Counted from the first letter of the stretch, positions 18,186 through 32,077 are shown. The stretch is DNA of 64,000 nt from an uncultured Gammaproteobacteria bacterium (GCA_963782445.1 CAWAJM010000001.1:1822224-1886223), one strand, 5' to 3'. Numbers and translations: made by a program. Notes: generated by a model not told the origin, from the letters alone.

Positions 18186-21100
18186 ATGCGCCTGAGTAAG
18201 ATCAAGCTTGCGGGCTTCAAGTCTTTCGTCGACGCAACGACGATTACTTTCCCGAGCAATCTCATGGGCATTGTCGGGCCGAACGGTTGCGGCAAGTCCA
18301 ACGTCATCGACGCGATCCGCTGGGTGCTCGGCGAGAGCTCGGCCAAGACGCTGCGCGGCGATTCGATGACGGACGTCATCTTCAACGGCTCGAGCGGCCG
18401 CAAGCCTGTGAGCCAGGCCAGCATCGAGCTCGTATTCGACAATTCCGACGGCACTGTCACGGGCGCCTACGCGCAGTACGCGGAGATCGCAGTGAAGCGC
18501 GTTCTGACGCGCGACGGCAATTCGCAGTACTGGCTCAACGCCAGCCGCTGTCGCCGCAAGGACATCCTGCACATCCTGCTGGGCACCGGGCTCGGCACGA
18601 ACGGCTATTCGATCATCGAGCAGGGCATGATCTCGCGCATCGTAGAGGCCAAGCCCGACGAGCTGCGCGGCTTCCTCGAGGAGGCCGCCGGTATCTCGAA
18701 ATATAAAGAGCGGCGCCGCGAGACCGAGCACCGCATCCGGCACACGCGCGACAATCTCGAGCGCCTCGGCGACCTGCGCGAGGAGATCGAGAAGCAGCTC
18801 TCCCATCTGCAGAGGCAGGCTACGGCCGCGGCCAAGTACAAGGAGCTCAAGAGCGAGGAGCGGCGCGTGCATGCCGAGCTGCTGGCGCTGCGCCTGCGCG
18901 CGCTCGGGGCGGAGCTCGAGGCGCAGGAGGCCGTGCTGGCGGAAAAGAAGGCCGCGCTCGAGGCCGCGCTCGAAGGCCGGCGGGGCATGGAGCAGGAGTC
19001 CGAACGGCTGCGTGCGACGCTCGCCGAGCGAAACGAGGCGCTGAACGGCGTCCAAGGCGACTATTATCGAGTCGGCGCCGAGCTCGCCCGGCTCGAGCAG
19101 GCCATCCAGCACCGCAAGGACCTCATCAAGCGCCAGCGCGAAGATCTCGAGACGACAGAGCAGCAGCTCGAAGAGATTCGCTCCCACATTGCCAACGATG
19201 AGCTCGAGCTCGAGCAGCTCGACCACGCGCTCGAGGCGTTGAGCCCGGAGCTCGAGCAGGCCGTGGACAACCGGCAGGCGGCCGAGGCGTGTCTGGCCGA
19301 GGCCGAGGCGTCTATGGAGTCCTGGCGCGGGCGCTGGGAGCAGGTCGCGAGCCAGTTCTCGAACACGGAGAGCGCTGCGCGTGTCGAGGAGGCGAGGCTG
19401 GAGCAGCTCACGGCGCAACGCGATCGCTTGCAGCGCGATCTCGACAAGCAGGCCGCCGAGCGCGCGGGCATCGACCTCGAGGAGCCGGAGACACGCCTGG
19501 AGCAGCTGTTCGGCCAGGAGGAAGCGCTCAACGGCGCGTGCGCCGAAGCGGCGCGTTCGCTGGACGGCGTGTGGCAACGCATTCAGGAGCTGCGGGAGCA
19601 GGACAAGCGGATCTCTGCCGAGCTGCACGAGTTGCGCGAGATGCTGCAGAACGACCGCGGTCGGCTGGCGTCGCTCGAGGCGCTGCAGGAGGCGGCGCTC
19701 GGCGAGACCACGAAGCAGGTGGGCCGGTGGCTCGAAAGCGCCCCGCTCGCGGATCGCCGCAGCCTCGCCGAGCGGCTCGTCGTGGACGCCGGTTGGGACC
19801 GGGCGGTCGAAACGGTGCTCGGCAGCTATCTGCAGGCCGTCAGCGTCGATGCGCTCGAATCGGTGGCCGAGAGCCTCGGCGAGCTGACGGAGGGCGGGCT
19901 CGCACTGCTCGAGGAATCCGATGCGGCCGCCGCCCCGAGCTCGGCGGCCGCGGGTTGGCTCGTGGACCATGTCCGCGAGCCGGCATCGGCCAGGGGGCTG
20001 CTCCACGGTGTCCGCACCGCCGAGTCGCTGCAGGGTGCCGTCTCCATGCGCTCGCAGCTCGCTCCTGGCGAGTCGATCGTGACGCGCGACGGCTTTTGGA
20101 TCGGCCGCAACTGGCTGCGCATCAACCGCAGCGACGACCCGGAGGTCGGCGTCATCGTGCGCGGCGAGGAGATCGCGCGCCTCAGGGAGAAGATCGAGTC
20201 GACCGCGGCGCGCGTCGAGGACGTCGCGGAACGGCTGGCCGAGACGCGGGCGCACCTCGAGCAGCTCGAGGAGGCGCGCAAGGACGCTCAGAACGAATCG
20301 ACGCGGCGCCAGCAGCTTCATGCCGAAGCGAAAACGAAGCTCGAGTCCGCGCGCGCCGAGCTCGAACAGGTCCGCAACCGCGCGACGGGGCTCGACCGGT
20401 CCATCGAAGAGCTGCGCGCCGAGCGGCTCGCTGCCGAACAGAAGCTCGAAGAGAGCCAAATCCGGCGCGAGCAGGCGGCCACGCAGCAAGAGGAGCTCGC
20501 CGGCGTTCGCGAGCGGCTCGAGCACGAGCGCGATCATCATCAGTCCGTGCTGTCCGAGGCGCGTGCCCAGGCCGAGCACGACCGCCAGGCCGCCCACGAC
20601 CTCGCCCTCAAGGTCGAATCGCGCCGGCACTCGAAGGAGTCCGCCAGCGCCGCGCTCGCCCGCGTGCAGGCGCAGCAGCAGCATCTGCTGAAGCGCCGCG
20701 ACGAGCTGCGGAGCCGTCTCGAGGGGGCCGCGGAGCCACTGGCCGAAGACGAGGCGCGGCTCGGTACGCTCGCCCACGAGCGCGCGAACGTCGAGGCCCG
20801 CCTGGCCGAGGCCCGTGCAGCAGCCGAGCAGACCGATGCGGAGCTTCGCGAGCTCGAGCAGCGGCGCAGCCAGGCCCAGCAGGCCGTCGCCGAGGCTCGG
20901 GAGGCGGCCGACGCCGTTCGCCTGACGGTCCGCGAGGCGCAGGTTCGGTCCGAGACCGTCGCCGAACAGTTCCGGGAGACCGAATTCGAGCTCGCGCAGG
21001 TCTTGGCTGAGCTGCCCGAAGACGCCGAGGCGGGGCAATGGCACGAGTCGCTTGAGCGCCTCGAGCGGCGCATCCAGCGCCTCGGCGCCATCAACCTCGC

Positions 21101-21695
21101 GGCCATCGACGAGTTCGAGCAACAGTCCGAGCGCAAGAAATATCTCGACTCACAATTTGCCGATCTCACGGAAGCGCTCGAGACGCTCGAGAACGCCATC
21201 CGCAAGATCGACCGCGAAACGCGGACTCGCTTCAAGGACACGTTCGAGCGCGCGAACCAGGGGCTCCAGCGGCTGTTTCCGCGCCTTTTCGGGGGCGGTC
21301 ATGCCTATCTGGAGCTCGAGGGCGAAGACCTGCTCGAGGCCGGCGTCGCGATCATGGCGCGGCCGCCCGGCAAGCGGAACAGCACGATCCACCTGCTCTC
21401 GGGAGGGGAGAAGGCGCTGACGGCCGTCGCGCTCGTGTTCTCGATCTTCGAGCTGAACCCTGCGCCGTTCTGTCTCCTCGACGAGGTCGACGCGCCGCTC
21501 GACGATGCAAATGTCGGCCGGTTTTCGGACATCGTTCGCGAGATGTCCGATCAGGTCCAGTTCGTCATCATTACTCACAACAAGACGACGATGGAGACGA
21601 TGCATCAGTTGACGGGCGTCACGATGCACGAGCCCGGCGTGTCGCGTCTCGTCGCCGTCGATCTCGATGAGGCGGTGAAACTGGCCGCCATGTAA
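18186..21695 (+). CDS. smc: Chromosome partition protein Smc
   Basis: The 1169-aa protein has a Walker A motif (GPNGCGKSNV), long coiled coils, a hinge, the signature LSGGEKALTA and a Walker B motif (FCLLDEVDAPLD). Confidence 0.96.
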   Translation: MRLSKIKLAGFKSFVDATTITFPSNLMGIVGPNGCGKSNVIDAIRWVLGESSAKTLRGDSMTDVIFNGSSGRKPVSQASIELVFDNSDGTVTGAYAQYAEIAVKRVLTRDGNSQYWLNASRCRRKDILHILLGTGLGTNGYSIIEQGMISRIVEAKPDELRGFLEEAAGISKYKERRRETEHRIRHTRDNLERLGDLREEIEKQLSHLQRQATAAAKYKELKSEERRVHAELLALRLRALGAELEAQEAVLAEKKAALEAALEGRRGMEQESERLRATLAERNEALNGVQGDYYRVGAELARLEQAIQHRKDLIKRQREDLETTEQQLEEIRSHIANDELELEQLDHALEALSPELEQAVDNRQAAEACLAEAEASMESWRGRWEQVASQFSNTESAARVEEARLEQLTAQRDRLQRDLDKQAAERAGIDLEEPETRLEQLFGQEEALNGACAEAARSLDGVWQRIQELREQDKRISAELHELREMLQNDRGRLASLEALQEAALGETTKQVGRWLESAPLADRRSLAERLVVDAGWDRAVETVLGSYLQAVSVDALESVAESLGELTEGGLALLEESDAAAAPSSAAAGWLVDHVREPASARGLLHGVRTAESLQGAVSMRSQLAPGESIVTRDGFWIGRNWLRINRSDDPEVGVIVRGEEIARLREKIESTAARVEDVAERLAETRAHLEQLEEARKDAQNESTRRQQLHAEAKTKLESARAELEQVRNRATGLDRSIEELRAERLAAEQKLEESQIRREQAATQQEELAGVRERLEHERDHHQSVLSEARAQAEHDRQAAHDLALKVESRRHSKESASAALARVQAQQQHLLKRRDELRSRLEGAAEPLAEDEARLGTLAHERANVEARLAEARAAAEQTDAELRELEQRRSQAQQAVAEAREAADAVRLTVREAQVRSETVAEQFRETEFELAQVLAELPEDAEAGQWHESLERLERRIQRLGAINLAAIDEFEQQSERKKYLDSQFADLTEALETLENAIRKIDRETRTRFKDTFERANQGLQRLFPRLFGGGHAYLELEGEDLLEAGVAIMARPPGKRNSTIHLLSGGEKALTAVALVFSIFELNPAPFCLLDEVDAPLDDANVGRFSDIVREMSDQVQFVIITHNKTTMETMHQLTGVTMHEPGVSRLVAVDLDEAVKLAAM

Positions 21696-21706
21696 CGGCG
21701 ACGACG

Positions 21707-24534
<2,828 letters not shown>

Positions 24535-24536
24535 GT

Positions 24537-25376
24537 ATGCGTTCTGCGTTTCAGCAAGCTGTGCTCGCATCGCTCGCGGGCCTTCTGATGCCCGTCGCCC
24601 GGTTGATGCTGAGATGCGGCGTTGGCTGCCCCGAATTCGTGGCCGTCACCAAAGCAGTGTTCGTGCAGGTTGCGTCGGAGCAGTACGGCGTCAGAGGAAG
24701 GCCAGCCAATGCTTCTCGGGTCGCGGCGATTACGGGATTGTCACGAAAACAAGTCAGGCGGATAAAGGAAGTGGGGCCGGTAGCGCGCTGGACGCCCGAA
24801 ATGGAGTCCACCCCCGCTAATGTCGTCCTGCACTATTGGCACTTCGACCCCGAGTACTCGGAGGCGCCCGGACAACCGCGATGGCTTTCCCTTGAGGGAG
24901 AGAAGAGCTTCAGTACCCTAGTTCGCGACTACGCGGGAGATATCCCGCCGACCGCGATGCTGAAGGCGTTGATGAGAGTGGGCGCGATTAGACGGGACCG
25001 CGCGCAGCAACTCCTCCCGCAAGAACGGTATTTCTATCCAGCAGATTTTGACGAAGATTTTGTCCACAACGCTGCCTTTGCGCTCCGAAGCCTTGGCGAT
25101 ACGTTGGTCTATAACGCTACGATATGGGCTGCTGCCGACGGTGCGGGCGATCAGTGTGCGGCCGAGGAAAGCCGCTTCGAGCGCGTCGCATGGACTGACC
25201 GTTTCACTCCCGAGGTGACGGCAGCCTTCAAGGCCTGGGTTCGCGCGGAGGGTACGAAGTTCATAGAGGAAGCGGATGATTGGATCGGGAAGAACGAGGG
25301 GACGAAAGAACGGCCATTCCCCGGAGAGCCGAGGGCCGTTGGCGTTGGCCTGTATTATTTTGAGGAAGAACGATAA
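24537..25376 (+). CDS. Uncharacterised protein with a putative N-terminal HTH (island paralog A)
   Basis: The 279-aa protein starts 2 nt after the ligA stop. It is homologous along its length to ORF 27993..28829, with shared blocks P(L/V)(A/V)R, EF, VFV.VA, SR.A..TGLSRK.V.R.K, WH.DPEY, SF..LV....GD..P.A.L..LMRVGA, RFER and GVG.Y.F. Confidence 0.7.
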   Translation: MRSAFQQAVLASLAGLLMPVARLMLRCGVGCPEFVAVTKAVFVQVASEQYGVRGRPANASRVAAITGLSRKQVRRIKEVGPVARWTPEMESTPANVVLHYWHFDPEYSEAPGQPRWLSLEGEKSFSTLVRDYAGDIPPTAMLKALMRVGAIRRDRAQQLLPQERYFYPADFDEDFVHNAAFALRSLGDTLVYNATIWAAADGAGDQCAAEESRFERVAWTDRFTPEVTAAFKAWVRAEGTKFIEEADDWIGKNEGTKERPFPGEPRAVGVGLYYFEEER

Positions 25377-25927
25377 GAAGGCAAGTCTGCGCGTACTAGC
25401 CTGTACAGACGCGCGAAATTTTGGGTCGTTTGGTCAAAATGATCCTTAACGAAACGCATCCCAAGCTTTTCTAATACTCTGATACTTCTGGTATTTTCTT
25501 TGTAAACTAAACCAAAAATACGTTCGAGGGCGAGACCGTCGGCCGCGAACGCAATTGATACCAGCTCGCTGGCTGCCTCGAGAGCGAAACCGTATCCCCA
25601 TTCCGTTACCGCTAGCCCATATGTGACTTCGAACTCGTCGAAGTCGTTCATCCGCTCTATTCCGCACCAGCCTATCACTCTCCCACTAGCTCGATTCTCC
25701 ATGGCAAGGGCACCGAATCCCGTTGATTCAACCTTGTAAATCAACCGCTCAAGTGATCGACGGGACTCGGACCGGCTCTTCGTGCCTCCTGCATAGCGGT
25801 TGACGTCCTCATCGCGATGGAGCTCGAACAGTGCGTCAGCGTCTTCGATGCGGAATGCACGTATCAAAAGGCGCTGGCCACATATAGGTAGGAACTTAGT
25901 GAGCCCCGGGGAGTGTGGTGATTCCAA
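25355..25927 (-). CDS. GNAT family N-acetyltransferase (RimJ/RimL-like)
   Basis: LLIRAFRIEDADALFEL...IGWCGIER...EVTYGLAVTEWGYGFALEAA...N.RSIRVLEKLGMRF is the typical pattern. The gene has low GC, and its 3' end overlaps paralog A by 22 nt (convergent). Confidence 0.8.
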   Translation of the reverse strand: MESPHSPGLTKFLPICGQRLLIRAFRIEDADALFELHRDEDVNRYAGGTKSRSESRRSLERLIYKVESTGFGALAMENRASGRVIGWCGIERMNDFDEFEVTYGLAVTEWGYGFALEAASELVSIAFAADGLALERIFGLVYKENTRSIRVLEKLGMRFVKDHFDQTTQNFARLYRLVRADLPSYRSSSK

Positions 25928-26316
25928 AAATAGGTTCTCTGAAAAAACTCGTTTTAAAACAGTGTGTTATAGGTTATTGCCCGTGCAGAGGCACCATCGC
26001 ACGAGCGATCGAAATTGGTTACACCGGCAAAGAATCTCACAGTTTTTTTTTGACTTTCCATGAAGTAAGTCATGTTTCTTCTTGACGCAATCCCGAAATG
26101 CGACCAAAATCCCACCAAACAGAATTATGTACAGTTCGAAGGGCTTTTGTTAAAAGCCACGCGCGGTAGCTAAGAAGAATCCGCCAATCCGAACCAACAA
26201 AAATAAGTCCTATAACAGTGAACAGAAATAGCAAGGCGCTAGGGCAGATCTTGGGGATTGTCAAGAGACCTGTCTTAGCGGAGTCCGAGACTCTGGCAAC
26301 CTCCGGAGGGGTTCAC

Positions 26317-27831
26317 ATGCGCAAACTCCGCGTCGCTCCTGGCTCTGGTGCAGTGATGATGGCGGCCGTGGTGTCTTCCTTTTTTCTTCTTGTTGGCCCC
26401 TCGTACGGGGCGACCGGCAGTAGCGTTCAGGGTATCACGGGCAGCGGATCGCGCGGCATCACGGGCAGTGGATCGCGCGGCATCACAGGCAGTGGATCGC
26501 GCGGCATCACGGGCAGTGGATCGCGCGGCATCACGGGCAGTGGATCGCGCGGCATCACAGGCAGTGGATCGCGCGGCATCACGGGCAGTGGATCGCGCGG
26601 CATCACGGGCAGTGGATCGCGCGGCATCACAGGCAGTGGATCGCGCGGCATCACGGGCAGTGGATCGCGCGGCATCACGGGCAGTGGATCGCGCGGCATC
26701 ACAGGCAGTGGATCGCGCGGCATCACGGGCAGTGGATCGCGCGGCATCACGGGCAGTGGATCGCGCGGCATCACAGGCAGTGGATCGCGCGGCATCACGG
26801 GCAGTGGATCGCGCGGCATCACGGGCAGTGGATCGCGCGGCATCACAGGCAGTGGATCGCGCGGCATCACAGGCAGTGGATCAAGGGGCGCGACTGCCGC
26901 TGGGTCGGCGATTTTCCAGTCGATCGCTATGGGGCCAGTTGATGCGGTTGATTCGGCTGGCGGCGTTTCGATTATCTCCGTGCTAGGGCAGACCTTCGTT
27001 GCGCCTTCTGCCCAGATTTCGGGCCTTTCAGCCGGAGACTATGTCTTAGCTGCGGGCTCTGGTGATGGTGAGTTGTCTGTGCTTGTTCCTCTCGACGAGC
27101 CTTACGTTCCCGGAGCCTCTCCCGTCCTTATCCGAGGCTCCGTCAATTCAGTCAATGCCGACACGGGGCAGATGTCCGTCGGTCTTGCCTCGGTTGACTT
27201 CACGGGAGAGTTGGCCACTGACGCGTCGTTTTCCCCGACCCCTGGACAATTGGTTGAGGTCGGCGGAATTCAGCCTGCAGCTGGTGGTGTGGTTCTTGCG
27301 GGAATCACGGGTAGCGGATCCCGAGGCATTACTGGCAGCGGTTCTCGCGGGATCACGGGCAGCGGTTCTCGCGGGATCACGGGCAGCGGTTCTCGCGGGA
27401 TCACGGGCAGCGGTTCTCGCGGGATCACGGGCAGCGGTTCTCGCGGGATCACGGGCAGCGGTTCGCGAGGCATTACTGGCAGCGGCTCCCGCGGCATCAC
27501 GGGCAGTGGCGTGCGAGGGATTACTGGCAGTGGCCTCCGTGGTATCACGGGCAGCGGTTCGCGAGGTATTACTGGCAGCGGCTCCCGAGGCATCACGGGC
27601 AGTGGCCTGCGAGGTATTACCGGCAGTGGTCTCCGTGGTATCACGGGCAGCGGTTCGCGGGGAATTACCGGTAGCGGGTCTCGCGGCATCACGGGCAGCG
27701 GTTCACGGGGAATTACCGGTAGCGGGTCTCGCGGCATCACGGGTAGTGGCTTGCGAGGGGTTACTGGCAGCGGTCTTCGTGGTATCACTGGTAGCGGGTC
27801 ACGCGGGATAACCGGCAGCGGATCGCGCTGA
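26317..27831 (+). CDS. Secreted octapeptide-repeat protein: 19 x GITGSGSR, a 138-aa core, then 22 x GITGSG(S/L/V)R
   Basis: GGAGGGG lies 5 nt upstream of the ATG at 26317. The signal peptide is MRKLRVAPGSGAVMMAAVVSSFFLLVGPSYG/A. Repeats account for 328 of the 504 residues. Synonymous codon variation among the units of the second array supports translation in this frame. Confidence 0.78.
   Translation: MRKLRVAPGSGAVMMAAVVSSFFLLVGPSYGATGSSVQGITGSGSRGITGSGSRGITGSGSRGITGSGSRGITGSGSRGITGSGSRGITGSGSRGITGSGSRGITGSGSRGITGSGSRGITGSGSRGITGSGSRGITGSGSRGITGSGSRGITGSGSRGITGSGSRGITGSGSRGITGSGSRGITGSGSRGATAAGSAIFQSIAMGPVDAVDSAGGVSIISVLGQTFVAPSAQISGLSAGDYVLAAGSGDGELSVLVPLDEPYVPGASPVLIRGSVNSVNADTGQMSVGLASVDFTGELATDASFSPTPGQLVEVGGIQPAAGGVVLAGITGSGSRGITGSGSRGITGSGSRGITGSGSRGITGSGSRGITGSGSRGITGSGSRGITGSGSRGITGSGVRGITGSGLRGITGSGSRGITGSGSRGITGSGLRGITGSGLRGITGSGSRGITGSGSRGITGSGSRGITGSGSRGITGSGLRGVTGSGLRGITGSGSRGITGSGSR
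26431..26886 (+). repeat. Near-perfect tandem array, 19 x 24 bp, with a 72-bp higher-order period
   Basis: Units GGCATCAC(G/A)GGCAGTGGATCGCGC run head to tail. The Thr codon alternates acg-acg-aca six times. Confidence 0.97.
27301..27828 (+). repeat. Diverged tandem array, 22 x 24 bp, encoding the same octapeptide
   Basis: The units differ mostly at synonymous positions. Six units carry S to L or S to V at position 7, and one of these also carries I to V at position 2. Confidence 0.95.
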
Positions 27832-27867
27832 CGTTAACGTTCCATTCGCGTCGTCCCTTCACAAGCG

Positions 27868-27916
27868 GGGCGAGGCCTAACGGCGATCGTGTCGTTGGGC
27901 CTCGCCCTTTTTGTTG
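27868..27916 (+). terminator. Intrinsic terminator of the repeat-protein gene
   Basis: GGGCGAGGCC, a 20-nt loop and GGCCTCGCCC form a perfect 10-bp stem, followed by TTTTTGTTG. Confidence 0.7.
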
Positions 27917-27992
27917 TCTGTTTGATCCCCTCAAGTCGAAAGAACGACGCGTTTAATTGCGGGCGCGATTCTTGGTGTGATAACTAGAGCCG

Positions 27993-28829
27993 ATGGGAGA
28001 ATCTGTACGAATCGGCCTTCTGTCCGCCTTCCGCCGGCTAATGCAGCCGTTAGTTCGTATTCTCGTGCGTAATGGTGTTTCGTACCAAGAGTTCGCGGAA
28101 CTTTTGAAGAGCGTCTTCGTGGAAGTAGCGGAACGTGACTTCACCATTGCGGGACGCAAGTCCTCGCAATCCCGAATTGCCATACTGACTGGGTTAAGCC
28201 GAAAGGAAGTCTCGAGGCAGAAGGCAATACTAGCTGGTGGCGGGCCAATTGACGCTACCAGCAACCTTAATGGAATTACCCGACTGCTGGTCGGATGGCA
28301 TTCCGACCCGGAGTACACAGGGCCTTATGGAATGCCAATTGAAGTACCTTTCGAATCGGCTGGTGGTCCCAGTTTCACTCAACTCGTCAAGCGCCATAGT
28401 GGCGACATGGCGCCGAGGGCCGTCCTTGACGAGCTGATGAGGGTCGGTGCTGTCGACGAGTTGGGCAATGGCTTGCTTCGCGTGCTTACCCTCGCCTACA
28501 TCCCGCAACGCTTGAACCCGGACGCGCTTGAGCGCTTTGGGGAGGTAGTAAGAAATTTCATATGCACATACGAATACAACATGGAACGGCCGCCTTCAGC
28601 GTCGGGTGCTGGTCGCTTCGAACGAATCGTTTTTCCGGACGATGGGCTGCGCCCGAGTCTGATGCCGGCTTTCGAGAAGCTGATTAGGACCAAAGGCCAG
28701 CAGCTACTTGTCGAACTGCTCAATTGGCTAAATGCACAGGAAATTTCCCAAGATGCTAAGCCGAGCGACAGCACAAGAATTAATACGGGCGTTGGCATCT
28801 ACCACTTTATCGATGACGGATCGGAATAG
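27993..28829 (+). CDS. Uncharacterised protein with a putative N-terminal HTH (island paralog B)
   Basis: The 278-aa protein is homologous to ORF 24537..25376 (see that entry) and has low GC. Confidence 0.7.
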   Translation: MGESVRIGLLSAFRRLMQPLVRILVRNGVSYQEFAELLKSVFVEVAERDFTIAGRKSSQSRIAILTGLSRKEVSRQKAILAGGGPIDATSNLNGITRLLVGWHSDPEYTGPYGMPIEVPFESAGGPSFTQLVKRHSGDMAPRAVLDELMRVGAVDELGNGLLRVLTLAYIPQRLNPDALERFGEVVRNFICTYEYNMERPPSASGAGRFERIVFPDDGLRPSLMPAFEKLIRTKGQQLLVELLNWLNAQEISQDAKPSDSTRINTGVGIYHFIDDGSE

Positions 28830-28919
28830 CTCGGGAGCCCCGCGCTCGAAATCTATCTTCGCGATGCCAAGCGCGCTAGCGCCACATTGCCGCTTCGGCC
28901 ACGACTCGGTGTCGTTCCG

Positions 28920-29786
28920 TCATTTTGAGTTATTGTTCGCACCGCTTGCTTGCTTCTTCAGCGACTCTATATACGCCTGAATCTTCTGCTGATTCACCGC
29001 GTTAGTCATCTTGTCTCGCACGGAGTCCAGTGACGGCGGCTGGTTGTCCTTCTTGTCCTCGAGCTCGATGACGTGCCAGCCATACTGCGTCTTGACCGGT
29101 TGCTCCGTGTAGGAGCCGACCTTCAGGCTTTTCACCGCCTCCCCGAACGGCTTGACCATCGACTCGGCCGTGAACCAACCGAGGTCTCCTCCGGAGGGTC
29201 CCGTCGGGCCCGTCGACTTCTTCTTAGCGAGTGCGGCGAAGTCGGCGCCCTTGTCGAGCTGTGCAATGATTGCCTTCGCCTCGTCCTCGGTCTTGACGAG
29301 GATATGGCGCGCTTTGTACTGAGTTGCGCCGAGGTTTGGTAGCTGCTTTTGGTAGGCAGCCTTGACCTCGTCATCGGTAGCCGGGTGCTGCTCGATATAC
29401 CGGTTGATCATCGCGCGGGCCAGTAGTTGCTGGCGCTGCAGCTCGAGCTCCACGGCGATCGTACGCTCCTGGGGCAGGCCCTTGGTCTGCGCCGCATCGG
29501 CGAGGAGTTGGAGATTCTCGAGGCTGTCGAGAACGCCCTTCCGTTGCTCGTCCGTCAGGTCTTCTGGCGCCTTGTGCAGGGCATTCTCGGTGTAGTAACG
29601 GTACATGGATTCGTTGATCGGCGTGCCGTCGGAGGCTTTGACGGTGCTCGTGCCGAGCGCATCGGAATTGCTGGCTGCCGCGCTGCCGTCGGCCTGGGTC
29701 TGCGGGCTCCCGTGTTGAGCGCATGCGGCCAACAAGACGGAGGCACAAGCGAGGCCTGCGGCGGCGAAATGCAATCGAAACTTCAT
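28920..29786 (-). CDS. PpiC/parvulin-type peptidyl-prolyl isomerase lipoprotein
   Basis: MKFRLHFAAAGLACASVLLAAC is a lipobox. A SurA-like N-terminal domain is followed by the parvulin core (YKARHILV...GGDLGWF....MV.PF..A...L..G......V.T.YGWHVI). The ATG at 29786 is used; the listed upstream extension overlaps bolA. Confidence 0.85.
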   Translation of the reverse strand: MKFRLHFAAAGLACASVLLAACAQHGSPQTQADGSAAASNSDALGTSTVKASDGTPINESMYRYYTENALHKAPEDLTDEQRKGVLDSLENLQLLADAAQTKGLPQERTIAVELELQRQQLLARAMINRYIEQHPATDDEVKAAYQKQLPNLGATQYKARHILVKTEDEAKAIIAQLDKGADFAALAKKKSTGPTGPSGGDLGWFTAESMVKPFGEAVKSLKVGSYTEQPVKTQYGWHVIELEDKKDNQPPSLDSVRDKMTNAVNQQKIQAYIESLKKQASGANNNSK

Positions 29787-29788
29787 CT

Positions 29789-30091
29789 CTATCCTTTCTC
29801 TCTCTCTCGGTGAGTTTCCTCGGCGGCAGAGGGGGCGAGGGCGACAAGACTGAGCGCATGGATGTCGGTCTTCATGAGATCGCCAAGCGCATCGTAGACC
29901 ATACGATGCCGCTCCAACGTCTTGGTTCCCAGGAACCGGTCCGATACGAGCCGCACTCGAAAGTGGCCGCGCCCGTCGCGGGCGCCCGGATGCCCGGCAT
30001 GCCGATGGCTTTCGTCCTTGATCTCGAGCTCTTCGGGCGCGAAGGCCTGCTCGAGGCAAGCGCGAATGGCGGAGACGCGATCCTCAGTCAG
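29789..30091 (-). CDS. BolA family protein (not in the ORF track; apparent CTG start)
   Basis: The minus-strand translation is (L/M)TEDRVSAIRACLEQAFAPEELEIKDESHRHAGHPGARDGRGHFRVRLVSDRFLGTKTLERHRMVYDALGDLMKTDIHALSLVALAP... There is no in-frame ATG/GTG/TTG after the upstream stop at 30122-30124. GGGAGAGGAGG lies 6 nt upstream of the CTG at 30091. Confidence 0.75.
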   Translation of the reverse strand: MTEDRVSAIRACLEQAFAPEELEIKDESHRHAGHPGARDGRGHFRVRLVSDRFLGTKTLERHRMVYDALGDLMKTDIHALSLVALAPSAAEETHREREKG

Positions 30092-30659
30092 GGCTGGCCT
30101 CCTCTCCCTGTGGCTGGGCCGCTATCTCCTGCCCCGAGGTGCGCACGGCGATCCATATGGCTTGGCCGATGGCCGTCAACAGCATCAGGCCGAACTCGCC
30201 GAACAGCTTGAAGTTGACCCAGGTGGCTTCCGTGAAGTTGTACAGGACGATCAGATTGGCGGCGCCCATGACTACGAAGGCGGCCACCCACATGAAATTG
30301 AGCTGGCGCCACATGTCCGCGTCCAGCGTTACGGCATGCCCCATGAGCCGTTGGATCAGCGGCTGTTTGCCGAAGTAGTACTGGCTTGCGAGAAAGGCAC
30401 CGGCAAATACCCAGTACACGACCGTCGGCTTCCACTCGATGAAAATGGGGTTGCGCAGCGCGAGTGTGATGCCGCCGAGCACGGCGACCGCGGCCGTCGA
30501 GACGAGCAGCATGCGGCTGACCCGGCGCCGGCGCAGCCATTGCGCGGCGAGCTGTGCGGCCATGATCGCGATAGTCGCTCCGGTTGCCACGTACATGCCG
30601 GCAAGCTTGTACGCCACGAAGAAGACGATAATCGGAAATAAATCAACGAGTAGCTGCAT
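30084..30659 (-). CDS. ispZ: Intracellular septation protein A (YciB/IspZ)
   Basis: MQLLVDLFPIIVFFVAYK... is the N-terminus of a 5-TM inner-membrane protein of the YciB family. Confidence 0.9.
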   Translation of the reverse strand: MQLLVDLFPIIVFFVAYKLAGMYVATGATIAIMAAQLAAQWLRRRRVSRMLLVSTAAVAVLGGITLALRNPIFIEWKPTVVYWVFAGAFLASQYYFGKQPLIQRLMGHAVTLDADMWRQLNFMWVAAFVVMGAANLIVLYNFTEATWVNFKLFGEFGLMLLTAIGQAIWIAVRTSGQEIAAQPQGEEASPD

Positions 30660-30746
30660 TAGGCGTGTACTCTGCTGGAGACCGCTAGGCGCATCTTAAC
30701 CCAAGCGGGGTGAGGCGCGCCCTCCGGCTGTGCTTACAATGGCGGC

Positions 30747-31370
30747 ATGAGCCAGTACTTCAAGGTCCATCCCATCAACCCACAGCCTCGTCTGCTCGAG
30801 CGAGCGGCCGAGAGCCTTGCGGCCGGGGGCGTCATCGTCTATCCGACCGATTCCGTCTACGCCTTCGGCTGCCGCATGGGGGAGAAGGAGGCGCTCGAGC
30901 GAATACGACGCATCCGGCGTACGGAGCGGGATCATGAATTTACGCTGGTCTGCCGCGACCTGTCCGAAATCGCAACTTACGCGAGGATAGACAATCAAAC
31001 CTACCGACTGTTGCGTTCCCTCACGCCCGGGCCCTACACCTTCATCCTCCGAGCCACGCACGACGTGCCGAAGCGGTTGCAGGATCCGAAGAAGCGGTCG
31101 ATCGGTATCCGCGTGCCGGATCACCCGATTGTGGCCGCGCTGCTGGAGGTTTTCGGGGCCCCGATCCTGAGCTCGTCGCTCCTGCTCCCGGAGGAGGAGC
31201 TGCCGATGTCGGATCCGGAGGAGATCCGCGACCGGCTCGGCAGTCAGGTGGATGCCATCGTCGACGGCGGCGCATGCGGCGTGGAGCCGACGACCATCCT
31301 CGATCTCAGCGGCGATACGTTTACCGTCCTGCGCGCCGGCAAGGGCCCTGCGCCGAACTTCGCTTCGTAA
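30747..31370 (+). CDS. yciO: YciO (Sua5/YciO/YrdC family) protein
   Basis: It aligns closely with E. coli YciO (MSQ.F..HP.NPQ.RL...A......GGVIVYPTDS.YA.GC......ERI.RIR......FTL.CRDLSE..TY). Confidence 0.87.
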   Translation: MSQYFKVHPINPQPRLLERAAESLAAGGVIVYPTDSVYAFGCRMGEKEALERIRRIRRTERDHEFTLVCRDLSEIATYARIDNQTYRLLRSLTPGPYTFILRATHDVPKRLQDPKKRSIGIRVPDHPIVAALLEVFGAPILSSSLLLPEEELPMSDPEEIRDRLGSQVDAIVDGGACGVEPTTILDLSGDTFTVLRAGKGPAPNFAS

Positions 31371-31405
31371 GCCCGCCGAGCCTTTAGAGAGCGTATAATA
31401 CGGCG

Positions 31406-32077
31406 ATGCCGGGACTAGATTTTGCTCACCTCATTCGGGTCTTGTCGGTGGCGGCCATCCCTGGCGTACTGGCAATTACCCTTCACGAAGTTGCCCACGG
31501 CTGGGCGGCCCGCCTACTCGGGGACAACACCGCCTACATGGCCGGGCGGCTCAGCCTGAATCCGTTGAAGCACGTGGATCCAATCGGCACGGTCGTCCTG
31601 CCGATCGTGATGCTGCTGATCCCGGGCGGCCCCATCTTCGGCTGGGCGAAACCGGTTCCCGTGGCTTTCGGTCGGCTCCACCACCCGCGGCGCGACATGA
31701 TCCTCGTGGCGGCCGCGGGGCCGGGCTCCAACCTGCTCATGGCGCTCGCGTGGGCGCTCATCGGTGCGCTCGAGATGCTCGTCCTGCACGTGGGGGGCCT
31801 GCCGGGCCAGTGGATCATCGGGGTCTGCCGGTTCGGGATCGAGATCAACGTCGTCTTGGCCGTTTTCAACATGGTGCCGATTCCGCCCCTCGACGGCGGC
31901 CGCGTGCTCGCGGGGCTGCTGCCGCCGCAAGGCGCCCGGATGCTTGATCAAATCGAGCCGTTCGGGATACTCATCGTTTTGGTGCTGCTCATGACTGTCC
32001 TGTGGCGGTTCCTCTCGGGGCCCGTCGTGTATTTCGTCAATGTGTTCTACTCGATAGCCGGATTCGGACACCTATGA
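31406..32077 (+). CDS. Site-2 protease family (M50) membrane metalloprotease
   Basis: It has the HEVAHGW zinc motif, multiple TM segments and the NMVPIPPLDGGRV motif. Confidence 0.8.
   Translation: MPGLDFAHLIRVLSVAAIPGVLAITLHEVAHGWAARLLGDNTAYMAGRLSLNPLKHVDPIGTVVLPIVMLLIPGGPIFGWAKPVPVAFGRLHHPRRDMILVAAAGPGSNLLMALAWALIGALEMLVLHVGGLPGQWIIGVCRFGIEINVVLAVFNMVPIPPLDGGRVLAGLLPPQGARMLDQIEPFGILIVLVLLMTVLWRFLSGPVVYFVNVFYSIAGFGHL

Follow-up and report, generated by a model that had tools for sequence, protein, structure and literature searches.

HetR, the master regulator through which filamentous cyanobacteria differentiate heterocysts, forms an obligate dimer of intertwined subunits and recognizes a palindromic operator. 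It consists of a DNA-binding domain (residues 1–98), a flap (99–216), and a hood (217–299), of which the flap and the hood were described as novel folds, and crystal forms differ by as much as 63° in the swing of the flap (PMC4649674). RGSGR peptides control HetR by binding strand beta3 of the hood, the residues involved being R223, E253, E254, D256, D270, and D278 (PMC4649674). Its inhibitors with this motif are PatS, HetN, and PatX. The origin of hetR has been placed within Cyanobacteria (PMC12669612), and the gene is described as anciently associated with PatX, an RG(S/T)GR protein (Elhai & Khudyakov 2018 as cited in PMC12669612; PMC7761841); we found no literature report of HetR-like proteins outside cyanobacteria. 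The protein families DUF6502 and DUF5666 are catalogued but uncharacterized, and our literature search found no paper mentioning DUF6502, for which no function or structure is on record. Here we analyze a 64,000-nucleotide stretch of DNA from an uncultured Gammaproteobacteria bacterium (GCA_963782445.1 CAWAJM010000001.1:1822224-1886223; the whole 64-kb stretch is called the window), in which two DUF6502 genes, parA (24537..25376, + strand) and parB (27993..28829, + strand), bracket a gene for an exported octapeptide-repeat protein (26317..27831, + strand).

The two genes encode an A-type protein of 279 amino acids and a B-type protein of 278 amino acids, both with a predicted fold like that of HetR. 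With moderate confidence, we read the DUF6502 proteins as HetR-fold dimeric DNA-binding regulators of the linked exported-repeat-protein gene, lying within an ancient and vertically inherited three-gene module. An initial annotation of the window had recognized the open reading frames (ORFs) of this block, including the two paralogs, a GNAT acetyltransferase gene, an AT-rich spacer, and the octapeptide-repeat protein with its terminator, and we found all of them where it had placed them.

Predicted fold and candidate role of the DUF6502 paralogs

The two paralogs align end to end at 31% identity (BLASTP E value 2e-41) and share the motifs listed in the initial annotation, which could assign them to no characterized family. 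That statement still holds, although a hidden Markov model search places both in a named family, Pfam DUF6502 (PF20112): parA matches with 111.8 bits (E value 3e-32, residues 8–278) and parB with 171.5 bits (E value 2e-50, residues 9–274), against a cutoff of 27 bits. More than 1100 homologs of parB were found, the 50 homologs that were aligned all matched DUF6502, and a search with the DUF6502 profile returned 5772 clusters (50% identity) at E value ≤ 1e-3 and 1152 at E value ≤ 1e-30. NCBIfam added nothing for the proteins of the block, neither Pfam nor NCBIfam holds an enzyme family matching the paralogs, and a search of the PDB by sequence gave spurious designed-repeat matches only. Weak, sub-threshold helix-turn-helix (HTH) matches were found at residues 54–78 among the 50 members (HTH_29 in 8, Sigma70_r4 in 6, and other HTH models); these and the fold described below agree with the HTH-like character that had been read from the sequence. 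The database version of parB (P0001) has 262 amino acids and starts 16 codons downstream (window 27993-28040); the 278-amino-acid form is probably the real one, because the alignment with the orthologs already begins at the upstream ATG (MGESVRIGLLSAF...).

AlphaFold2 monomer models, built on input alignments of 50 and 48 sequences, reached a mean predicted local distance difference test score (pLDDT) of 85.4 and a predicted template modeling score (pTM) of 0.71 for parB, and 88.2 and 0.73 for parA. When the parB model was compared with the PDB using Foldseek, the top five matches were all HetR chains (4j00_A, E value 1e-4, probability 1.0; 4izz, 3e-4; 4yrv, 1e-3; 3qoe, 0.1), aligned over 311–323 columns, and the next matches covered MarR-type winged helices only, with E values of at least 0.25. 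For parA, HetR 4j00_A again came first (E value 1.8e-3, 330 columns, probability 1.0), followed by a partial match about 100-fold weaker. HetR was the sole full-length PDB match for either protein, all remaining matches being at least 100-fold weaker and limited to a winged helix, and a match of this extent is unlikely to arise by chance because the flap and the hood of HetR are novel folds (PMC4649674). In the DUF6502 models, five helices at the N terminus, the HTH among them at residues 59–81, are followed by a middle winged-helix-like unit (helices 128–136 and 141–150, hairpin 154–164) and a C-terminal part made of a helix (176–198), the invariant RFER, a second helix (221–248), the invariant GVGxY(F/H), and an acidic tail. 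This order of helix, RFER strand, helix, and GVGxY strand would correspond to the alpha-beta-alpha-beta order of the HetR hood, and the RFER and GVGxY strand segments are unpaired in both monomer models, as would be expected if they paired across a dimer. At the level of motifs, HetR T64-G65-(HLHH)-L-E71-P-K-R-V75, with the HetR sequence checked against 4HRI and 4YRV, lines up with DUF6502 T66-G67-L-S-R-K-E-V73. The label HetR-type regulator, as we use it for the paralogs, refers to this likeness of the predicted fold and does not place them inside the HetR family.

To place the paralogs in their genomic context, we compared LigA-anchored loci from GTDB genomes, contigs encoding homologs, and 80 metagenome loci, numbered here as L001 and so forth. 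Among the 92 loci with DUF6502 genes, a repeat or core gene lies at most 3.5 kb from a DUF6502 gene in 46, the other 46 being too short to judge, and wherever 2.5 kb or more is available to the left and to the right, such a gene is present. An A-type gene, a B-type gene, and the repeat protein occur together in 46/46 judgeable loci, in three gene orders and, in L149, at a second chromosomal site, which upholds the earlier description of the block as a self-contained module. Since one A-type and one B-type gene are invariably present (three paralogs in L149), a heterodimer or a two-regulator switch is suggested. On the HetR analogy, the proteins would most likely act as dimers, either an A/B heterodimer or two homodimers, which would bind DNA and control the linked repeat-protein gene and may also control their own genes.

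Upstream of the repeat gene lies the AT-rich spacer (25928..26316, no strand), with 45% GC over the 386 nucleotides from 25928 to 26313; the corresponding regions of 15 other lineages are also AT-rich (39–55% GC), and inspection by eye of the regions preceding 16 repeat genes revealed no common motif. A promoter-like site, TTGACG-17-CAAAAT at 26082–26110 (+ strand), falls within a block (~26055–26160) that is ~90% conserved in L001, the closest relative (LigA 88% identical), and a divergent promoter-like site for the GNAT gene lies at 26153–26124 (− strand). The leader of ~200 nucleotides (26117–26316) is also ~90% identical to that of L001 and far better kept than the 5′ part of the spacer; it shows no unusual RNA folding energy (z −0.46) and no Rfam match. 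The palindrome GGCTTTTGTTAAAAGCC at 26142–26158 is common to the window and L001 only. Just upstream of the −35-like hexamer there is also an inverted repeat, CATGA-N6-TCATG (~26060–26075), one arm of which differs in L001.

Several observations weigh against reading the paralogs as HetR-fold regulators. The TM-scores between the DUF6502 models and HetR are 0.40–0.42, and the root-mean-square deviation is 9–10 Å; such modest values are expected for a three-domain protein whose flap is mobile, the HetR flap differing by as much as 63° from one crystal form to another (PMC4649674), and they do not constitute proof. The parA and parB models share most of their alignment and are not fully independent. 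The HetR Pfam models PF03574 (Peptidase_S48) and PF18460 (HetR_C) matched none of the 50 DUF6502 members at E value ≤ 10, and hhalign comparisons were nonsignificant both for the 378-sequence DUF6502 profile with a 121-sequence HetR alignment (E value 0.35, probability 0.2%), which is a very shallow profile (Neff 1.1) as the 120 best HetR search matches are all 86–93% identical, and for a single-sequence comparison with HetR (E value 0.52). No operator was found to be shared across lineages, the palindrome GGCTTTTGTTAAAAGCC not extending beyond L001. The sample of 92 loci is made up of relatives of the proteins in the window (39–86% identity to parB) and covers only part of the DUF6502 family with its 5772 clusters; for two distant members of the family, the contigs were too short to show their gene context. 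The persistently low GC content at third codon positions (GC3) of the module, detailed below, is not accounted for by recent transfer. Finally, the invariant polar residues of the family, W102-H103-x-D105, D138, T192, N196, R208, and E210 (the motifs W-H-x-D, GD, T...N, and R-F-E-R), could form a ligand-binding or catalytic site and not belong to a pure DNA binder.

The same residues, which look like a binding or active site, lead to the alternative that the DUF6502 proteins are cytoplasmic accessory factors of the repeat protein, acting as a chaperone, a modifying enzyme, or an export-targeting factor, with the HTH-like region binding a protein or a ligand. Such a role would suit the strict linkage to the repeat gene and the overlap of B with the repeat-gene start in some lineages, an arrangement also seen in substrate-helper operons, and HetR itself was at one time classified as peptidase S48, a name that PF03574 carries in Pfam. 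The best fold match, however, is a transcription factor bound to DNA, and all of the secondary ones are regulators of the winged-helix type; with the sub-threshold HTH matches falling at the expected place and the paralogs matching no enzyme family in Pfam or NCBIfam, we consider accessory factors of this kind unlikely.

The exported octapeptide-repeat protein

The longest ORF of the repeat gene spans 26218–27831, and the likely start is the ATG at 26317, with a GGAGG 7 nucleotides upstream, giving a product of 504 amino acids. Its first 31 residues form a signal peptide of the Sec type, with MRKLRVAPGSG ahead of a hydrophobic stretch and cleavage between SYG and AT, which marks the protein as exported. 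No anchor or sorting signal is visible in it, and the initial annotation's term "surface protein" claims more than the signal peptide supports. The signal peptide is followed by an N-terminal array of 19 GITGSGSR units (26431..26886, + strand), a core of ~138 amino acids (26887..27300, + strand), and a C-terminal array of 22 GITGSG(S/L/V)R units (27301..27828, + strand) that reaches the stop codon. The core consists of two DUF5666-like beta modules and is kept in all orthologs: DUF5666 (PF18914) was matched in 22/23 of them with a best E value of 5e-11, and the core in the window matched it in two stretches below the 27-bit cutoff (15.4 bits, E value 0.023). The whole protein has no Pfam match above the cutoff, and a search of the PDB with the core sequence gave nothing under an E value of 0.05. 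The gene ends in an intrinsic terminator on the + strand (27867..27918; hairpin 27867–27908) with a 19-bp stem, 12 G–C pairs, and a T run, which is also kept in L001. Other long ORFs in this region, at 26390–26986 (+), 26427–26870 (−), 27062–27811 (+), and 27270–27788 (−), were rejected as genes and are by-products of the 24-nucleotide period (e.g., MPRDPLPV repeats).

The two arrays differ in their histories. The 24-nucleotide units of the N-terminal array are near-identical (97% matches), with a higher-order period of 72 nucleotides (ACG, ACG, ACA at codon 3), and the array is missing in L001, which has the C-terminal array only (L001:13779-15134); it appears to be a recent expansion. Because such a near-identical array is absent from the closest relative, arrays seem to be gained and lost quickly, even between genomes whose LigA proteins are 88% identical. 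The units of the C-terminal array have diverged in DNA (75–80% matches) and stay constant in protein: comparisons of unit pairs gave 1016 synonymous against 122 nonsynonymous codon differences, each position uses 2–4 synonymous codons, and almost all amino acid variation falls at position 7. Nine other arrays show the same trend, where the synonymous diversity alone is informative as the regular expression used to find the units fixed positions 1–6. These patterns indicate that the octapeptide unit is under purifying selection within one protein and that its sequence matters, and both a structural repeat and a released peptide would fit the data.

Every ortholog has a signal peptide and the core; the arrays flank the core on its N-terminal side, its C-terminal side, or both, and the unit varies between lineages. 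The units of eight residues are GITGSGSR, GITGSGLR, GMTGSNVR, GQSGSSLQ, GFSGSNGR, AITGSGRQ, GLSGSNGR, GYSGSNLD, AIGGTDVR, SIIGGDVN, GLKGSGVR, GIHGSSAN, GIDSSSGQ, GISGSSAR, GLGGSGNR, AIHGSGAE, and AITGGSAT, and those of ten residues are GIHGGDRNLQ and SIGGSDLMKR; their consensus is [GA]-hydrophobic-x-G-[SGT]-[GSND]-x-x.

A released peptide would make the repeat protein a polyprotein precursor in a peptide-signaling circuit of the HetR–PatS/PatX or RRNPP type, in which proteolysis would free numerous octapeptide copies (e.g., GITGSGSR, cut after Arg). Following reuptake or cell–cell transfer, these would attach to the hood-like domain of the DUF6502 proteins and thereby switch the DNA binding of these regulators. 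The HetR-like fold of the models is compatible with this, as RFER, which is the one motif invariant in the C-terminal domain of DUF6502, may lie on the strand equivalent to the RGSGR-binding beta3. The ancient association of hetR with PatX in cyanobacteria offers a parallel, and the linked gene combines a signal peptide with units such as R-GITGSG-S-R, R-GLGGSG-N-R, and R-GLKGSG-V-R, whose positions 1–6 are constrained within a protein and differ between lineages in the manner of pherotypes. A structural repeat would explain the constraint on the units just as well, however, and the residue-level alignment of DUF6502 with the HetR hood is not reliable. The repeat protein lacks the RGSGR motif, with no RG[ST]GR found in it or in the 23 orthologs, and there is no common cleavage site, because roughly half of the lineages lack the terminal Arg (GQSGSSLQ, GYSGSNLD, AIHGSGAE, GIDSSSGQ, SIIGGDVN). 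A conserved globular core of ~130 amino acids would be needless in a mere precursor, and the module contains no gene for a protease, an exporter, or a peptide importer. We consider a circuit of this type quite unlikely. Its furthest-reaching form, in which the DUF6502 proteins are distant noncyanobacterial homologs of HetR and the repeat protein releases tens of identical octapeptides that tune the DNA binding of A/B dimers, is improbable in our view; if true, it would mean cell-density or cell–cell signaling in Gram-negative soil and sediment bacteria, with peptide "pherotypes" coevolving with their regulators.

The arrays also affect the assemblies in which the module is found. Many short-read contigs end a few hundred bases from the DUF6502 gene on the array side (L002, L005, L083, L085, L113, L119, L129, L140, L143, L146, and others), and half of all related contigs break off close to the repeat gene. 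The long-read assemblies L004, L082, L084, and L086 have frameshifts in the arrays, and gene callers chose wrong array frames, as in the 454-amino-acid "ACKVRAAA" product of L082. Because repeat genes break short-read assemblies, the module is likely to be underrepresented and miscalled in metagenomes.

Synteny, base composition, and age of the module

In every relative with readable flanks, the module occupies the same site, from 88% down to ~55% LigA identity. The block of L001 is identical in gene order (ligA-A-GNAT-repeat-B-ppiC), L002 (LigA 76%) has ligA-A-GNAT before the contig ends, L004 (LigA 66%) has ligA-A-repeat-B-ppiC without GNAT, and two DUF6502 genes and a repeat gene are found between ligA and ppiC/bolA/ispZ down to ~55–60% LigA identity. 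The patchy presence expected of a recent island was thus not found in this comparison of ligA–ppiC intervals. With > denoting the ligA strand and < the opposite strand, the three gene orders are ligA>A>[<GNAT]>rep>B><ppiC (Arch1: the window, L001, L004, L082, L084, L095, L154), ligA>A>B>rep><ppiC (Arch2: L122, L136, L137, L141, L142, L159, L161, L163), and ligA>A> <rep <B <bolA<ispZ (Arch3: L086, L118). At the second site (L149:3-3562), the start of a repeat gene (unit GIGGSDLN) is overlapped by a B-type gene, after which come two further DUF6502 genes, the whole adjoining fadD, tesA, and an ABC ATPase gene.

Outside these lineages, ligA directly abuts ppiC-ispZ-yrdC in six Steroidobacteraceae-like metagenome-assembled genomes (MAGs), and other lineages carry unrelated cargo at the junction, including rfb genes, transporters, cytochromes, and, in L048, an IS200/RAYT-like gene. 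The ligA–ppiC junction thus appears to be a variable hotspot in related Gammaproteobacteria. Because synteny is deep here and the outgroups have empty sites or unrelated cargo, the module is best explained as an ancient insertion at a variable junction, vertically inherited since; the three genes would have been inserted in a deep ancestor, and GNAT would have joined later in one sub-clade. The cargo seen at L048:13595-14308, L030:7960-13451, L049:12076-16608, L027:12305-16122, and L079:12560-15389 comprises dTDP-sugar genes with a chemoreceptor, cation transporters, carbonic anhydrase with multihaem cytochromes, a small GNAT, and the IS200/RAYT-like transposase gene.

The GNAT N-acetyltransferase gene (25355..25927, − strand; 190 amino acids, RimJ/RimL-like) is convergent with parA, with a 3′ overlap of 22 nucleotides, and its product covers the full Acetyltransf_3 model (PF13302, residues 19–158, 105.7 bits against a cutoff of 25.4). 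It was found only in the window, L001, L002, L083, L095, and L154, a distribution that points to a later, lineage-specific addition in one sub-clade and removes it from the core of the module, to which it had initially been assigned.

On the left, the module follows ligA (22489..24534, + strand), the last gene of an smc-zipA-ligA run, and on the right parB is convergent with the ppiC-bolA-ispZ genes (28920..30659, − strand), which adjoin ligA where the module is absent; bolA itself (~29819–30091, − strand) was missed by the ORF listing. The neighbors are genes of chromosome maintenance and cell division, with smc, zipA, and ligA to the left and ppiC, bolA, and ispZ/yciB to the right (window 18186-24534, 28920-32077), and scpA and scpB lie further out in L081:5209-7012 and L082:12066-13721. 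The ATG of parA stands 2 nucleotides past the TAG of ligA, with a GGAG Shine–Dalgarno sequence within the ligA 3′ end, an arrangement that we read as translational coupling of parA to ligA; because the gap is so small and the GGAG lies inside the ligA end, parA is probably expressed together with smc-zipA-ligA. The gap is 1–4 nucleotides in L001, L083, L084, and L085, ~20–26 in L095 and L154, and ~160–190 in the clade with the gene order ligA>A>B>rep.

The initial annotation had called the composition of the block sharply atypical, and both its hand count (18 G+C out of 60 at 25921–25980, exact on recounting) and the claim itself were confirmed. Across the whole window, GC content in 400-nucleotide windows has a mean of 0.667 and a standard deviation of 0.045, and all 400-nucleotide windows below 0.56 fall in 25101–26500 or 27801–29100. 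GC3 is 0.66 in parA, 0.53 in the GNAT gene, 0.57 in the repeat core, and 0.58 in parB, compared with 0.79–0.87 in smc, zipA, ligA, ppiC, ispZ, yrdC, and the M50 gene. The same difference is found in all nine orthologous blocks measured (the window, L001, L002, L004, and L081–L085; LigA 61–88% where on the contig), where the module has a GC3 of 0.52–0.70 against 0.75–0.88 in the flanks and lies 0.1–0.25 below its flanking genes. The identity of parA tracks that of LigA (Spearman rho 0.83, n = 21, the points not being independent).

As had been noted earlier, there is no integrase or transposase among the four ORFs of the block, no tRNA in the 64-kb window, and no meaningful direct repeat flanking the block; the window also contains no tmRNA and no Rfam family. 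No relatives were found in IMG/VR or BFVD and no match in PADLOC or PHROG except a generic acetyltransferase, and we rejected a defense-system or phage origin on these grounds. The horizontal acquisition that the initial annotation proposed stands as an insertion relative to the outgroups, and its recent date is largely refuted by the sequence comparisons. A recently acquired genomic island owing its low GC to a foreign donor would agree with the GC3 contrast (0.53–0.66 vs. 0.79–0.87), with the empty sites in the MAGs and the unrelated junction cargo, IS200/RAYT-like gene included, and with the module's other locus in L149, but is very unlikely given the same site down to ~55–60% LigA identity, the equally low GC3 of every orthologous block measured, the parallel divergence of parA and LigA, the apparent translational coupling to ligA, and the lack of an integrase, tRNA, direct repeats, and viral or defense-system relatives.

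Comparison with described systems

The link in fold to HetR, the pairing of A and B paralogs, and the strict linkage of this pair with an octapeptide-repeat protein, all of them computational findings, appear to be new. A large proteobacterial family (5772 clusters at 50% identity) with a predicted HetR-like overall architecture gives HetR an evolutionary context, and DUF6502 and DUF5666 obtain a first testable functional hypothesis. The locus also illustrates that low GC alone does not equal recent transfer, as it has persisted here through deep divergence.

Among known repeat proteins, the beta-solenoids of RTX (the nonapeptide GGxGxDxUx) and ice-nucleation proteins (8 or 16 residues) resemble the arrays in their short Gly-rich units with one hydrophobic position, and some lineages have units of the IGG(S/T)D type (AIGGTDVR, SIIGGDVN, GIHGGDRNLQ); the period of RTX is nine, however, and that of the arrays eight (or ten), and the arrays match neither HemolysinCabind nor any other Pfam family. 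Secreted beta-domain proteins of the DUF5666 family, itself uncharacterized, are alike in the core, the octapeptide arrays lying outside DUF5666. The RRNPP systems (PlcR–PapR, Rap–Phr, AimR–AimP), in which a cytoplasmic receptor/regulator adjoins the gene of a Sec-exported propeptide, likewise have a regulator beside a signal-peptide gene and a peptide sequence specific to the lineage, but their receptor is a TPR protein, whereas the regulators here have a non-TPR fold, a Gram-negative host, and a large repeat-protein partner, with no Opp-type importer seen nearby. PatS is a 17-amino-acid peptide with a single RGSGR, in contrast to a partner of 300–500 amino acids with a DUF5666 core and 10–50 tandem octapeptides, and the RG(S/T)GR peptide of PatS, PatX, and HetN has no counterpart in this partner. 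HetR (PDB 3QOD, 4IZZ, 4J00, 4YRV) differs from the DUF6502 proteins in having no detectable sequence or profile similarity to them and in being a single gene of cyanobacteria, whereas DUF6502 genes are found here in Gammaproteobacteria and always as two or more paralogs. Its resemblance to the predicted models extends along the whole protein, from a similar size (299 amino acids compared with ~278) through a helical DNA-binding domain at the N terminus, where the HTH occupies the same position, to a domain in the middle and one of alpha-beta-alpha-beta type at the C terminus, which ends in a hydrophobic strand and an acidic tail, and each has a genetic association with a gene whose exported peptide sequence is rich in Gly, Ser, and Arg.

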